Shown here in pieces: positions 22,685-28,891 of a stretch of DNA of 30,905 bases (the first letter of the stretch is position 1; the number at the start of each line of letters is the position of its first letter). Location of the stretch: NCBI GenBank assembly GCA_048885525.1, contig JBHLLP010000040.1, positions 1 to 30,905 of the forward strand, given 5' to 3'. A model generated the notes under the pieces. That model was not told the DNA's origin, did not search any database, and saw nothing but the letters and a program-made list of their open reading frames with translations. The position numbers and the translations under genes are program-made. The stretch comes from Candidatus Hermodarchaeota archaeon (GTDB lineage Archaea > Asgardarchaeota > Lokiarchaeia > Sigyniarchaeales > SOKP01).

Positions 22685-22843
22685 ATATTATCCCTTATTT
22701 CACTTTCTAAATTAATAAAGTTATACTAAATCCGTATGTATAATTATATAAGACTTATTATTTATTTATAATTCTTAAAATCCACTTTTATATCATAACT
22801 CAAATATTTTAAATCTTGTTTCTCATTAACCATTTGATGCAGA

Positions 22844-22954
22844 ATGATTTTCTGTTTGAAATGTGGGAATCAAGCGAGTGGAAATAAAGATGGATATTAT
22901 TTCTGTTCGACTTGTGGAAAGGTAACATATTTTATGCTCTTAAGCTTTAAGTGA
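22844..22954 (+). CDS. Zinc-ribbon microprotein 1, 36 aa (MIFCLKCGNQASGNKDGYYFCSTCGKVTYFMLLSFK)
   Basis: Hand translation; CxxC-x13-CxxC, same spacing as the two downstream paralogs; ends TGA TAA. Confidence 0.65.
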   Translation: MIFCLKCGNQASGNKDGYYFCSTCGKVTYFMLLSFK

Positions 22955-23172
22955 TAACCAATATAAAAAAAATGATGGAACCCATTATGAATGACTCCTT
23001 CAAATAAATGATTGTTGTAGGATGACAACCTGCAATGGTATAGGGAATCATCAATTTATCTTTATTTTATTCATTAATTTTATTAAAAACTTATCTTAGG
23101 TTTTATGTTGTTATTAATTCTTTCTAAATCATAATAAGAATTTGTTAAAATTCAAAATAGGATTAATAAAGT

Positions 23173-23325
23173 ATGAACATTGTAGTCTGCAAAAATTGCG
23201 GTTATTCTTTTGAAAATAAAGGACCAGTTAAATATCATTGTCCTAATTGTTCCAAAGAAATGAAGTTTCTTAAATTAGAAGCATTTTGCGGTGCTAAACC
23301 TAATGAACTCAATGAAATAAATTAA
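23173..23325 (+). CDS. Zinc-ribbon microprotein 2, 50 aa (MNIVVCKNCGYSFENKGPVKYHCPNCSKEMKFLKLEAFCGAKPNELNEIN)
   Basis: Hand translation; CxxCG..FE..CPxC; ungapped paralog of the next ORF. Confidence 0.85.
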   Translation: MNIVVCKNCGYSFENKGPVKYHCPNCSKEMKFLKLEAFCGAKPNELNEIN

Positions 23326-23350
23326 ATACTTATATACTTTTTCTTTATAT

Positions 23351-23503
23351 ATGTTTTACGCGGTTTGCAAGGAATGTGGTTTCCACTTTGAAAATAAAGA
23401 ACCTGGATTTTATTATTGTCCTCAATGCCAAAAGGAAGTTAAATTTTTGAAATTAGAATTGTTTGATGGCGTAAAACCATCTGAAATCCATGAAAAGGAT
23501 TAA
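23351..23503 (+). CDS. Zinc-ribbon microprotein 3, 50 aa (MFYAVCKECGFHFENKEPGFYYCPQCQKEVKFLKLELFDGVKPSEIHEKD)
   Basis: Hand translation; shares VCKxCG, FENK, CPxC, KFLKLE and GxKP with microprotein 2. Confidence 0.85.
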   Translation: MFYAVCKECGFHFENKEPGFYYCPQCQKEVKFLKLELFDGVKPSEIHEKD

Positions 23504-23534
23504 AGTTATAAGGTAAAGTATTATTTTTCTCTTT

Positions 23535-24242
23535 ATGGCTAGAGCACTCTATATGGATAATTCTTACCTTAAAAGCTGGAATGCGAAAGTTGTAAGCGTA
23601 TCAGATGATAAATATGTCGTTCTTGATAAAACTGCTTTCTATCCTAAAGGAGGTGGACAACCTTGGGATGAAGGATTTATTATAAAAGATGAAGATAAAT
23701 TTCGAGTAGTTTACGTTGGTAAATTCTCAGGGAAAATCAGTCATGAAGTAGATAAACCGGGGTTAAAGGAAGGTGATGAAGTAAGTTGTGAACTTGATTG
23801 GGATCGAAGATACACTTTTATGCGGTATCATACGGCTTCTCATCTAATCAGTAATATCCTTTATAACAGAGCTGAGGCTAAAATTACAGGAAATCAAATT
23901 GAGATGGATAAAACGAGAATGGATTTCTCAATGCTGGATTATTCTCCTGAAAAATTAAAGGCTTTTGTTGATGAGGCTAATAATATCATTGAGAAAGACT
24001 TATCTATAACAATTGATTATATAACCAGAGACGAGGTCTTAGGAAAACCTGAATTAGCACGCTTAGCTATAGGATTACCTAAGAACATTAAAGAATTTCG
24101 CATAGTTAAGATAGGAGATATTGACGAACAAGTCGACGGGGGTACTCATATCAATCATCTAAAAGAGATTGGTAAGATTGAAGTGATTAAGACAGTAAAT
24201 AAAGGAAAAAATAACAGAAGAATGTATTTCGTCCTTGTTTAA
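23535..24242 (+). CDS. alaX: Alanyl-tRNA editing protein AlaX (AlaX-M type)
   Basis: TAFYPKGGGQPWD, LDWDRRY..MRYHTASH, DGGTH, NKGKNNRR. Confidence 0.9.
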   Translation: MARALYMDNSYLKSWNAKVVSVSDDKYVVLDKTAFYPKGGGQPWDEGFIIKDEDKFRVVYVGKFSGKISHEVDKPGLKEGDEVSCELDWDRRYTFMRYHTASHLISNILYNRAEAKITGNQIEMDKTRMDFSMLDYSPEKLKAFVDEANNIIEKDLSITIDYITRDEVLGKPELARLAIGLPKNIKEFRIVKIGDIDEQVDGGTHINHLKEIGKIEVIKTVNKGKNNRRMYFVLV

Positions 24243-24369: not shown

Positions 24370-24918
24370 ATGACTATCTCGGGAAAAAAATTAAAATATA
24401 AGATTACTGTCATTGGTGATGGAAGAGTCGGGAAAACGTCACTAATTAAAAAGTTCACGTTAGGTGCCTTTAAAACTGATTATGTTGAAACTATAGGCGC
24501 CCAATTTTCTAAATATGATAAGGAAATCGATGGTGACAACATTCGATTAATATTCTGGGATATTGCGGGGCAGAGGGATTTCGATTTTCTACGCCCTTCA
24601 TTTTATCGAGAGAGTGACGCGGCTATTATTGTATACAGCCTTGAAGAGAACGACCTTGGAAGTAGTAGTTTTGAACATATATCGAATTGGAATGAAGACC
24701 TCAAAAGGTTTTGTGGAGATATCCCAATTGTGGTGTTTGCGAATAAATCTGATTTAATTAATGAGGATGAGCTAGAACTATCTGAAATTCAAAAAATTGT
24801 TAGTGAACATAATTTCCTTGGATACTATATTACTTCAGCAAAAACTGGACAAGGAGTTTATAAAGCCTTTAACGACATTATTGAAAAACTATATTATACC
24901 CTTATAAAATCAATTTAG
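24370..24918 (+). CDS. Rab-like small GTPase (Ras superfamily, eukaryotic signature protein)
   Basis: G1 GDGRVGKTS, G2 TIG, G3 WDIAGQ, G4 NKSD, G5 TSAK; no C-terminal prenylation Cys. Confidence 0.92.
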   Translation: MTISGKKLKYKITVIGDGRVGKTSLIKKFTLGAFKTDYVETIGAQFSKYDKEIDGDNIRLIFWDIAGQRDFDFLRPSFYRESDAAIIVYSLEENDLGSSSFEHISNWNEDLKRFCGDIPIVVFANKSDLINEDELELSEIQKIVSEHNFLGYYITSAKTGQGVYKAFNDIIEKLYYTLIKSI

Positions 24919-25126
24919 TCAAAAATTAAACTTTTTTTATAAAAAGAAAGATTTTATGAGAATTACGTTAAGAGAAGTTGTAGATCTATAGACATTTAAT
25001 CCCACAGACATTCGAAACTACCGTGGGACTACGAGGATAAAAACTATTTATGAAATTAAAAGATCATATTCTATAATCATCAAGATGGTGATTTTCACAA
25101 TATATAACAAAAACGAGGTAGTTAAT

Positions 25127-26821
25127 ATGAAAAAATTAAAAACAAAATTGATTATTCTAACTACGGTTGTAATGTGTCTTTTCAGTTTTACTTTATTTTC
25201 GATAATTAATAATAATTTGGATAACAATGATAAATACAACAAAAATCTGAAATCGTCAAAAGTTTCGAATCCAATCTATATAGATGATAATAATCCAAGT
25301 CATAATTGGTCTGTTGCTAAAGCTGCAGGAAAATGTACTGGAGAGGGAACATATTCGAATCCTTATATCATCGAAGATTTAGTAATTGAAGGTGCCGGAA
25401 CGGATTGCATAAGGATTGAAAATTCAACTGTATACTTTAGGATTGAAAATTGTACTGTCCATAGTTCAAATTTGGGAATCCTATTAATAAATGTTAATAA
25501 TTCTCAAATAATTGATAATGATTGTGATTCTTTTTCAAATTATGGAATATTTTTAGATAATAGTCATAATAACAGTATTACAGGTAACACAGTGGATGAT
25601 ACTTGGTTTGGGATACAACTTAGTGATAGTACTATTAACATCGTGTCGGGAAATATTATAGGTACTCAGAGTTGGAACGGAAATGGGATTTGGTTATCTG
25701 AATGCAATGAAAACGTCATTTCGGGAAATTTTATAACTGAGTGTGGTGTGTACGGCGGTACTGCAATAAATTTAGTCCAAAGTAATAACAATACAATTTC
25801 GGGAAATACCTTAAATAACAACCGTCACGATGGGATAAAATTAGCTTTTAGTAATGATAATACAATTTCGGGAAATACCGCGGATGGCAATGATGATACA
25901 GGGATATATTTCGAATATCAAAGCCATAATAATACTATTTTAGATAATACTTGTAATAATAATGATGCAGGGATATTTTTAGATTTAGACTGCTATGAAA
26001 ACACAATTTCAGGAAATACTGTAAATTACAATGATGGTGGGGGTATATACTTATCTAAGAATGGACGCAATAACGTTTCGGGAAATACAGCAAGTTATAA
26101 CACTAATGATGGGATAAATTTAGATAGTAGTAATGATAACACCATTTCAGGAAACACCATAAATAATAACGGTAATGATGGGATACATTTAGAAAGCAGT
26201 GATGACAATATCATTACAGGAAATGGTTTGAATAATAATGATTTAGCTATTTATTTAGAGAATAGTCAACGAATCGAAATGTCTGGAAATACAATAGACC
26301 AATTTGCTTTACATCTTGTTGGGAATCTTCAAATGCTAGCTTCACATGACATTGATACTACGAATCTAGTGGGTGGCAAACCGATATATTACTATGCAAA
26401 TGAAGTAAATTTAGGATCAAGCGATTTTACGAATGCCGGACAAGTTATATTAGTTAATTGTAATGATTCCTCAATATCAAACTTAGATGTTTCTTATTGT
26501 CCCATTGGAATCGCGTTATACTATTGTAATAACAACAATGTTTCTGGAAACACTGCTAATGATAACACTCTGTACGGGATATTATTACATGAAAGTAGTT
26601 ATAACACCATTTCAGGTAATACCTTGCTAAGAAATGGTGAATGCATCGATGAAGTAGGAAATTGCGTAGGAAATGTATTCAGTGATAATGGTGAATGTAC
26701 ATATGGAGTTGTTAGTTCAGATGGTATCCCAGGATTCAGTCTTAATATTCTAATTGGTACTCTATTAGTAGCAGTAATTTTCATAAGCTTCAATATTACG
26801 AAAAAGTGGAAAATCAAGTAG
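25127..26821 (+). CDS. Secreted right-handed beta-helix (NosD/CASH repeat) surface protein with Loki-CTERM-like anchor
   Basis: GAGGT SD before ATG 25127, signal/TM, many GIxLxxSxxNxISGN repeats, IPGF + TM + KKWKIK. Confidence 0.85.
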   Translation: MKKLKTKLIILTTVVMCLFSFTLFSIINNNLDNNDKYNKNLKSSKVSNPIYIDDNNPSHNWSVAKAAGKCTGEGTYSNPYIIEDLVIEGAGTDCIRIENSTVYFRIENCTVHSSNLGILLINVNNSQIIDNDCDSFSNYGIFLDNSHNNSITGNTVDDTWFGIQLSDSTINIVSGNIIGTQSWNGNGIWLSECNENVISGNFITECGVYGGTAINLVQSNNNTISGNTLNNNRHDGIKLAFSNDNTISGNTADGNDDTGIYFEYQSHNNTILDNTCNNNDAGIFLDLDCYENTISGNTVNYNDGGGIYLSKNGRNNVSGNTASYNTNDGINLDSSNDNTISGNTINNNGNDGIHLESSDDNIITGNGLNNNDLAIYLENSQRIEMSGNTIDQFALHLVGNLQMLASHDIDTTNLVGGKPIYYYANEVNLGSSDFTNAGQVILVNCNDSSISNLDVSYCPIGIALYYCNNNNVSGNTANDNTLYGILLHESSYNTISGNTLLRNGECIDEVGNCVGNVFSDNGECTYGVVSSDGIPGFSLNILIGTLLVAVIFISFNITKKWKIK

Positions 26822-26858
26822 AGGAATTAAGAATTCCTCTTTTCAAAAATTTTTTTTC
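26821..26858 (+). terminator. Hairpin plus T-tract terminator
   Basis: GAGGAATT-AAG-AATTCCTC stem followed by TTTT and a longer T-run. Confidence 0.55.
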
Positions 26859-27079
26859 TTTGTTTAAGCTATTTGAACTCTTTCCTTTTTCATGACTCTA
26901 ACTCATTACCATGTCAAGGTAATTAGATTAACAAAAAAGAGCATTCTATAATATTTGCATATATAGCCTTTCTCGTAAGATTTAATAATAGCCATGAACC
27001 AATATTAATACATACAAAATCGTTAAAACCAATTTTTTTTTGAAAATTCAAATAAAAATTCACCTTAAGGAGAGTTATA

Positions 27080-28891
27080 ATGGGTGTAGAATCCAAAAAT
27101 GAAAGTACTAAAAAAAAAAAGCCAAAAAAGAAAAGAATATTTGCTGAGCATAAACCATTGGTTGTTGGAAGTATAATTGGTGTTGTAGCAATCGCGGGTA
27201 TTGTGGGCGGTATTGTTTTATTTTTAGGAGAAGAACAATATGGAGGTACTCTTACGAAAGCATACTGTGGGCTTTGGTGTAATGATACACTTTGGAGTTG
27301 GGAAGATTGGTCTGTTGGTGGTTGGAATGGTATGGGTAGCTCCGTAGACATAATAGATCAAATTGCAGAAGGGCTTTTTGAATATGAGATAACCGATGAT
27401 TATAGCGCTATTGTGCCAAATCTAGCAACAGGATTCGAATGGAGCGATGATTATTTAAATTTTACATGTCCTCTTAGAAAGGGGGTTAAATTCCACGATG
27501 GAACCCCATTTAATGCTACAGCAGTGAAACGGACTTTTGAACGGCTCCATAATTTAATAGACAATATAACATATTTCTATAGCCCTTACGTTTGGTATGA
27601 TGATGGGGAATTGATTATAAATAGAACTGAAGTCATAGACGACTACACTGTAAGGTTTGTATTGAACAAACCATTTCCTCGATTCATGTCATTGTTAGTT
27701 AGGCGTGATACATATATATTATCACCTAGAGCTGCTCCATTAAATGCTTTTATCGATACTGATACTGCCCTTATTGGAACTGGACCTTTTAAATACGATT
27801 CCTCTACGTTTCTATATGACCCACCTTCTGAGACTTATTATACGGCAAATACTACTTTACTTGCTAATCTTGATTATTGGAATGGAAGGCCAAAACTTGA
27901 TAAATTGGTTTTTAAAAATTATGAGGAACTAGTAATTTTTGATAATTGGAACCCCCAAAAGTTTGAAGATTTGGTATCCGGGAAGATACAATTAGCAAAT
28001 ATTTTTCCATTCACTATCCATAATGAAAATTACACTCAATATCCAGGAATTACCCTACATCCCTTTGATAGCTTATATATACAATTTATTACTATAAATA
28101 ACAATTTAATTAACACTACAATGAGGAAGACACTCTCTTACGCTATTAATTATAGTAAGATACTGAATTGGGAAAACATTCGGTATGAAGGGGGTGTTAT
28201 AAGATGTCGATCACCGGTTTCAAAAGGATTGCCCTACTCTAACTGGGAAGATTTTGACGTTCCAGATTATAATCTTACATATGCGCGACAAGTATTAAAA
28301 GATGTGAATTGGAATGGAACCGCTGGAGCCTTGACTGCGAATGATAATATCACTGCTGGAAATGAATGGGAAAGCCTTGTAACTAATGGAACACCTCTCG
28401 CAATATACAATTATACATATAAAGTTACTTCGGCCCCCCAATTTTATTATAGGTATATACTTGTCGAAAATTTTAAGCAAATTGGAGTTGAGGTAAATCT
28501 AATTCCAATTGTGCAAGGTGAGGAGTGGAAGTATGCATGGTCTCATTTTCGCTATGCTGGTTGGGGACCAGATTATTTTGATCCTTGTAGTAATATTAAC
28601 ACGTTGTTTTCAAGTAAAGCAGATGGAGATGGTAATTTGGGAAATGTAAATGATTCTTTAGTCCAACAATGGATGGAAATGGCCTTTTTAGAAACGAATG
28701 AAACTGCAAGAGCAAAATATTATTATGATATTCAAAAACGTCTTATCGAAGTTGTCTACCCATGTTTATGGACCTATACGGAAAGATATTGCATCGTTCA
28801 GGGTTTTTACCATGTAACTAGTAAAACTTTAAAGGGCATTAACTATAATCTTGTTCCTTTAAAATTATCATTAAAGGATGCCCATTTCTGA
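27080..28891 (+). CDS. ABC transporter substrate-binding protein, family 5 (DppA/OppA-like)
   Basis: PNLA, LRKGVKFHDGTPFNATAV, IGTGPF, GWGPDYFDP; N-terminal basic stretch plus TM anchor. Confidence 0.9.
   Translation: MGVESKNESTKKKKPKKKRIFAEHKPLVVGSIIGVVAIAGIVGGIVLFLGEEQYGGTLTKAYCGLWCNDTLWSWEDWSVGGWNGMGSSVDIIDQIAEGLFEYEITDDYSAIVPNLATGFEWSDDYLNFTCPLRKGVKFHDGTPFNATAVKRTFERLHNLIDNITYFYSPYVWYDDGELIINRTEVIDDYTVRFVLNKPFPRFMSLLVRRDTYILSPRAAPLNAFIDTDTALIGTGPFKYDSSTFLYDPPSETYYTANTTLLANLDYWNGRPKLDKLVFKNYEELVIFDNWNPQKFEDLVSGKIQLANIFPFTIHNENYTQYPGITLHPFDSLYIQFITINNNLINTTMRKTLSYAINYSKILNWENIRYEGGVIRCRSPVSKGLPYSNWEDFDVPDYNLTYARQVLKDVNWNGTAGALTANDNITAGNEWESLVTNGTPLAIYNYTYKVTSAPQFYYRYILVENFKQIGVEVNLIPIVQGEEWKYAWSHFRYAGWGPDYFDPCSNINTLFSSKADGDGNLGNVNDSLVQQWMEMAFLETNETARAKYYYDIQKRLIEVVYPCLWTYTERYCIVQGFYHVTSKTLKGINYNLVPLKLSLKDAHF

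Follow-up and report, generated by a model that had tools for sequence, protein, structure and literature searches.

Introduction

Published surveys recognise seven families of selenoproteins in Asgard archaea and a total of eleven across the archaea, and the archaeal families given in a 2026 review include SelD, FrhA, HdrA, FrhD, PrxL and the AhpF-N-like and DsbA-like proteins. The Asgard element known as lokiSECIS consists of an AUGA motif, a 9-bp stem, an 11-nt loop that begins with A's and ends in G, and a following GA (PMC4989117). Selenocysteine (Sec) at or next to the C-terminus is found in thioredoxin reductase (GCUG) and in UXX-star and SaoC, two bacterial families mentioned in PMC13188914, and in these proteins it serves as an exposed redox or metal-binding group. 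Small archaeal proteins with two CxxC knuckles are known from Haloferax volcanii as C(P)XCG micro-proteins (<70 aa; for example HVO_2753 and HVO_0758); their roles are mostly unknown and they are often non-essential (PMC11241148, PMC10716476). No selenoprotein was found among the papers listed on these halophile micro-proteins.

The window analysed here, that is the whole 30,905-nt stretch of DNA, contains at 22844-23503 (+) three paralogous genes, designated ORF1, ORF2 and ORF3, for microproteins with the pattern CxxC-x13-CxxC. The encoded proteins resemble the Haloferax micro-proteins in being archaeal, shorter than 70 aa and provided with two CxxC knuckles. However, they belong to an Asgard and not to a haloarchaeal lineage, they have a conserved C-terminal tail and a fifth position at which Sec, Cys or Asp is found or predicted, and they are not sequence members of the Haloferax group (17.7 bits with the HVO_2753 model vs a cutoff of 80). 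ORF1 is also unlike any known Asgard or archaeal selenoprotein in its predicted form, a Cys4 ribbon of 37 residues that terminates in Sec. The predicted Sec has the same C-terminal location as in thioredoxin reductase, UXX-star and SaoC, but ORF1 has no homology to these proteins and the likeness would be a functional analogy only. The surveys could not have found the ORF1 family because their searches relied on homology to known families, and a search of the full-text literature found no paper joining selenoprotein, zinc ribbon and archaea.

Considered as a whole, the locus is best explained by a family of Cys4 microproteins in which ORF1 is a selenoprotein with a C-terminal Sec and the fifth position has a redox role, a reading to which we give a probability of about 0.6. 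If ORF1 does end in Sec, it would represent a further, lineage-specific selenoprotein family, and a SECIS-first search in Asgard genomes would be expected to uncover new selenoproteins.

Results and Discussion

The array consists of three genes under purifying selection

The features of the array and its flanks are given in Table 1. As the preliminary description had stated, the three ORFs lie on one strand, all with the CxxC-x13-CxxC pattern in their translations, and the spacers of 25 nt between ORF2 and ORF3 and 31 nt between ORF3 and the AlaXM gene were confirmed on recheck. ORF2 and ORF3 align without gaps at 60% identity (BLASTP, E 7e-21), in agreement with the about half identity first reported. 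ORF1 shares 32% identity with ORF3 across 31 aa, which exceeds chance, and is a more distant paralog.

Table 1. Features of the microprotein array and its flanking genes (positions in the window)
Feature	Position	Strand	Remarks
LRR-only protein gene, 345 aa	21647-22684	-	Divergent; syntenic neighbour in several genera, context only
ORF1, short-type Cys4 ribbon microprotein	22844-22957	+	36 codons up to the TGA (22844-22954 including the TGA); TGA (predicted Sec) 22952-22954; stop TAA 22955-22957
Putative SECIS, lokiSECIS (eukaryote-like) type	22974-23052	+	Covariation, VhuD cross-matches and tracking of Sec forms
AT-rich promoter-like motif (…CATAATAAGAA…TTAAAA)	23121-23150	+	Kept upstream of ORF2-type genes in both genera
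ORF2, long type, 50 aa	23173-23325	+	Fifth Cys (…AFCGAKP…) aligned with the predicted ORF1 Sec
ORF3, long-type paralog, 50 aa	23351-23503	+	Asp replaces the fifth Cys (…LFDGVKP…); tail highly conserved
AlaXM trans-editing protein gene	23535-24242	+	Syntenic neighbour in g1 and g22, context only

Pairwise Nei-Gojobori comparisons gave a median dN/dS of ~0.10 in each of the three groups (short, n = 15; ORF2 type, n = 32; ORF3 type, n = 15), synonymous sites being often saturated in the ortholog comparisons of all three. Between the ORF3 of the window and that of L019 there are 14 synonymous and 2 non-synonymous differences. ORF1, ORF2 and ORF3 are real genes under purifying selection, and the selection on protein that had been proposed at the outset is borne out by these ratios and by the orthologs present in many related genomes.

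The family is restricted to Asgard archaea

The family has a short form of 36-43 aa and a long form of ~50-60 aa with a conserved tail (…F-C/D-G-x-K-P-x-E…). At the fifth position, 13 residues past the last ribbon Cys, short forms have Cys or the predicted Sec, ORF2-type proteins have Cys and ORF3-type proteins have Asp. The window, many relatives and two distant Asgard genomes (L035 and L037) have a short form directly upstream of a long form.

When 400 genomes of the phylum were searched, strong matches were found only in the window's own taxonomic family (100 of 134 genomes), and single matches outside it, with E around 1e-5, were too weak for interpretation. In the same genus, 19 of the 24 species in the first sample had a match. 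A profile search of 1.84 billion representatives returned only 17 proteins at E <= 1e-3, of which 15 are 33-61 aa long; the ten that were looked up are metagenomic, and all organism names given are Promethearchaeota or Lokiarchaeia. Relatives of ORF3 form 23 clusters (71-90% identity, 49-57 aa). All of them come from Asgard MAGs, where they are called 'hypothetical' or bear haphazard pipeline labels. The exact ORF2 sequence is present, unnamed, in public protein collections, where long forms are found; a collection comprising 15 billion predicted proteins lacks all four short-form sequences tested. The array thus belongs to an Asgard-restricted microprotein family without described relatives, and its initial designation as an undescribed family stands, no characterised family in Pfam, NCBIfam or the PDB reaching threshold.

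Several copies within the genus have internal stops or persist as remnants only, which shows recurrent loss of the long forms inside one genus. As the long forms are lost or pseudogenised in several species, the microproteins are dispensable. Five species (L025, L027, L031, L032 and L033) retain intact LRR and AlaXM genes, and their long-form genes are broken by stops or have decayed to remnants. An ORF2-type copy at L030:1220-1405 lacks the fourth ribbon Cys (C-E-N-Y) and keeps the fifth Cys; it carries a His/Asp-rich C-terminal extension that is shared by L075 and L076, in which the ribbon is intact.

The array proteins fall below the cutoffs of known zinc-ribbon families

Comparison of ORF1, ORF2 and ORF3 with Pfam and NCBIfam gave generic ribbon matches only, all below the curated cutoffs; Pfam ribbon models scored 13-21 bits on the array proteins, and the generic sub-threshold matches include Zn_ribbon_RPAB4 and PRK14890. 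The preliminary description had pointed to the Cys spacing of Rpo12/RPB12 and to FmdB-type ribbons. Both are similar in length to the array proteins and have a single CxxC...CxxC ribbon, but the scores do not place the array in either family (PF03604, 17.2 and 14.1 bits vs a cutoff of 24; TIGR02605, 14.5 bits vs 31.3), so that the resemblance is a sub-threshold one. AlphaFold models of ORF1 and ORF2 have moderate pLDDT values of 62-66 and a beta-rich fold consistent with a generic ribbon. No PDB entry was matched at E <= 1e-3 in the Foldseek search of the AlphaFold model, where only weak matches to generic ribbon or rubredoxin-like chains came up.

These weak matches would be accounted for if the proteins were nucleic-acid- or polymerase-binding ribbons with a modulating role in transcription or translation, either similar to Rpo12, TFIIB or TFS or associated with ribosomes, and Rpo12 and ribosomal ribbons are indeed among the weak Foldseek matches, in addition to the generic ribbon models named above. 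However, every score is under the curated cutoff, and the genome search found a bona fide Rpo12 elsewhere (G000:C32:20102-20212, 36.4 bits). Moreover, a patchy presence with pseudogenes in one genus is atypical of core machinery, and a C-terminal Sec is without precedent in such factors. A role of this kind is therefore regarded as unlikely.

A second possibility is that the proteins are rubredoxin-like iron electron carriers, in which the Cys4 site would bind Fe and shuttle electrons and the fifth Sec or Cys would be secondary. The CxxCG and CPxC knuckles, the weak matches to rubredoxin and rubrerythrin ribbon domains, the labels 'rubredoxin' or 'rubrerythrin' that public pipelines sometimes give to members and the Prx-like redox enzyme in the neighbourhood (see below) are consistent with it. 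On the other hand, the array is absent from the genome's matches to rubredoxin (PF00301), and canonical rubredoxins sit elsewhere in the genome, on contig C20. In rubredoxins the knuckle spacing is longer than the 13 residues of the array. The rubredoxin-like carrier first suggested is thus the redox option closest to the evidence, but the rubredoxin assignment itself is not upheld, and we consider an iron carrier of this type doubtful.

Two other resemblances were rejected. The profile search of PDB sequences yielded only a spurious knuckle match, 13 residues long, to the C2H2 repeats of PRDM9. A kinship with Spt4, LysW or Nop10 was dropped, as no such Pfam or NCBIfam model scored above noise and the tails differ.

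The codon after the last sense codon of ORF1 is predicted to encode selenocysteine

A TGA follows ...FK (in three cases ...YK or ...SK) in 23 distinct orthologs of ORF1 (14 collected first and 9 later), and in all 23 the next codon is TAA or TAG, the second stop varying between the two. In five orthologs (L030 and L075-L078), the same codon is TGT and the protein ends in Cys. The alignment column of the ORF1 TGA is occupied by Cys in the ORF2-type paralogs and by Asp in the ORF3-type paralogs.

The genome encodes SepSecS (385.5 bits), a tRNA-Sec that adjoins it (63.6 bits vs the Rfam gathering score of 47) and a SelD with an in-frame TGA. The features expected of a selenoprotein gene are thus found together: a conserved in-frame UGA, aligned Cys homologs, a SECIS at the appropriate position and Sec machinery in the genome. 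Given the TGA/Cys pattern, the SECIS and the Sec machinery, ORF1 is predicted to be a 37-residue selenoprotein ending ...SFK-U, and on this sequence evidence it most likely founds a new selenoprotein family ending in Sec. Of the 36-aa ORF that had been reported, the start and frame stand and the end does not, as the TGA most likely encodes Sec. Sec as the very last residue, right before the stop, is unusual.

The Sec genes lie at G000:C8:64962-66434 and G000:C16:19043-21411, with tRNA-Sec beside SepSecS and with two adjacent selD-like genes, one of which has an in-frame TGA. Multiple selD genes have been reported in Thorarchaeia (PMC11227280), in agreement with the two selD-like genes here.

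A lokiSECIS-type element follows the Sec-form genes

A structured RNA element is found 31-39 nt 3' of the second stop in the Sec-form orthologs. In the window, its outer helix pairs 22974-78 with 23048-52 and 22981-83 with 23043-45. The AUGA (22991-94) is followed by a 9-bp stem (22995-23003 / 23015-23023; seven of the nine pairs are Watson-Crick) with an 11-nt apical loop (23004-14, AUAAAUGAUUG), and then by GA (23024-25) and by CAACC and a mini-hairpin (23026-39). Across the orthologs the element comprises AAUGA, the 9-bp stem, a loop of 11-12 nt with an A-rich start and a G at its end (AAAAA...AG in the g22 orthologs), GA, the CAACC/mini-hairpin part and the closing helix. The window element agrees with the published description of the AUGA, stem, loop and GA of lokiSECIS (Mariotti et al., 2016; PMC4989117) and has the same shape as the type I eSECIS-like class (Huang et al., 2024; PMC11227280). 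In the alignment of the elements (A5), this structure pairs 88% of the cells compared to 29-48% in slid controls; nine pairs show compensatory changes, and the covariation score was not attained by any of 500 shuffles.

A covariance model (R1), built solely from the elements downstream of short forms, was run on the whole genome. It matched four further sites at E <= 1.5e-6. Two of them coincide exactly with the 3' ends of genes of the MvhD/VhuD type (PF02662, 139.7 bits), and each of these genes contains two in-frame TGA codons. On 20-22 further loci, R1 matched after every Sec-form short gene and after every PrxL gene; no match was found between Cys-form short genes and the next gene. Of six loci with acidic-tail short forms and without a PrxL gene, five gave no match, and in the sixth (L084) the only match lies right after a partial PrxL gene at the edge of the locus. 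The same RNA class thus stands behind VhuD and PrxL, which are known Asgard selenoprotein genes, and an interchange of Sec and Cys as seen here is typical of such genes.

Alternatively, the TGA of ORF1 could be the first stop of an ordinary tandem pair, ORF1 a plain 36-aa protein and the downstream RNA a terminator or an unrelated structure. TGA does end 13% of the long ORFs of this genome (29% GC), and the Rfam covariance models gave no meaningful match in 22700-23600, with no SECIS family up to E 10. Such a low share of TGA stops, however, also speaks for Sec, as does the finding of TGA with an adjacent second stop in only 14 of 2061 long ORFs (0.7%). Against an ordinary stop, the TGA is invariant among the Sec-form orthologs despite synonymous saturation whereas the next stop varies between TAA and TAG, the five orthologs with TGT are exactly those without the RNA element, and the element has the published lokiSECIS features and yields a model that finds the 3' ends of VhuD selenoprotein genes. 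An ordinary stop is therefore highly improbable. Because Asgard SECIS elements are seen as a link between archaeal and eukaryotic Sec decoding, more covarying Asgard examples are useful.

The remaining two R1 sites, G000:C70:459-545 (L073; E 5.7e-7) and G000:C1:79760-79852 (L074; E 1.5e-6), each follow an ORF with an in-frame TGA and no Pfam family. One of these ORFs encodes a membrane-like protein of 76 aa (…LAUGN…) and the other has an adjacent pair of TGA codons (…HADUUADV…); both are possible further selenoprotein candidates.

AlaXM and LRR neighbours probably reflect lineage-specific synteny

The gene downstream of ORF3 encodes an AlaXM protein with tRNA_SAD and tRNA-synt_2c domains (NF040865, 293 bits vs a cutoff of 300). 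Two genera of a single Thorarchaeia-like Asgard family share the layout LRR gene, short form, long form, long form, AlaXM. AlaXM follows a long form in g1 and g22, with another gene or genes inserted between the two in some g22 genomes; no AlaXM adjacency was found in the stretches fetched from other genera or at the four distant loci L034-L037. In several genera the short form retains the LRR gene as its neighbour.

The preliminary description had listed a Zn buffer or chaperone among the possible functions and had noted that AlaX is Zn-dependent. In an alaX-centred reading the microproteins would be accessory proteins, co-transcribed with alaXM, that supply or buffer zinc for the Zn-dependent editing enzyme or bind it, and the common strand, the two short spacers and the conserved order of a long type followed by AlaXM in g1 and g22 speak for it. 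In the stretches examined, however, AlaXM adjacency was confined to those two genera, members in other Asgard lineages being located away from alaX. In addition, some g22 genomes have further genes separating AlaXM from the long type, L031-L033 retain the LRR and AlaXM genes without intact microproteins, and the Sec/Cys position is left unexplained. The short spacers need not mean an operon, since each gene may have its own TATA-like box ~25-30 nt upstream. In both genera, the AT-rich motif has its end ~25 nt upstream of the ORF2 start codon, suggesting that ORF2 has its own transcription start, and TATA-like strings are similarly placed before ORF3 and alaXM; the short gaps may reflect leaderless promoters as much as an operon. 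Taken together, an AlaX accessory role is improbable, and the alaX and LRR neighbours probably represent lineage-specific synteny and not the functional core.

The family is associated with a Prx-like selenoenzyme

The broadest neighbourhood association of the family is with PrxL, a member of the AhpC/TSA family (80.8 bits) with an in-frame TGA in W-U-x-x-C and a SECIS of its own. PrxL directly adjoins family members at 11 loci (four in g1, three in g21, one each in g14, g17 and g18, and one in a Lokiarchaeota MAG); examples are L030:490-1029, L075:689-1258 and L037:455-973. All five Cys-form short genes lie ~30 nt upstream of PrxL. No PrxL was found in the window's own genome (99% complete), either with a relative's protein or by tblastn with three PrxL proteins. 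As this genome has the microproteins and no PrxL, the enzyme is not an obligatory partner.

The PrxL adjacency favours a role in thiol/selenol redox over zinc supply to AlaX. The Sec/Cys pattern and the gene neighbourhood suggest that the fifth position serves in thiol/selenol redox chemistry or in metal binding. The Sec or Cys at this position would be the working residue, a redox-active or metal-binding selenol or thiol, and the Cys4 site would provide a small metal-stabilised scaffold that holds it. The microproteins may then be partners or substrates of a thiol/selenol redox exchange, for which the adjacent Sec-containing PrxL (W-U-x-x-C) would be the likely counterpart in many relatives. 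In the window's genome, another thioredoxin-fold protein would take this place, because PrxL is absent. ORF3, with its Asp, would be a non-redox paralog.

A more specific proposal, which is put forward tentatively, is that ORF1 and its Cys and Asp paralogs form a new Asgard-specific family that could function as a thiol/selenol relay serving PrxL or another thioredoxin-fold enzyme. To our knowledge, no redox partner of this kind is on record for any organism. The locus would also offer a family of microproteins tied to a Prx-like selenoenzyme and a natural Sec/Cys/Asp paralog series for study of the role of the selenol.

Other genes near the array

A Ras-family small GTPase gene lies downstream of AlaXM in the window (24370-24918, 137.7 bits), and a small GTPase also adjoins a family member in L036. 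Small GTPases are very abundant in Asgard genomes, and a functional link was dropped because the adjacency is probably due to chance. L038 and L036 each encode a 323-aa protein beside a family member, but the two proteins are not related. The short and long microprotein genes of one relative (G008) are separated by a gene for a secreted-looking protein of 433 aa. The window also contains, at 25085-28891, two large ORFs of 578 and 603 aa, the first of which has Asn/Gly-rich repeats typical of beta-helix surface proteins.
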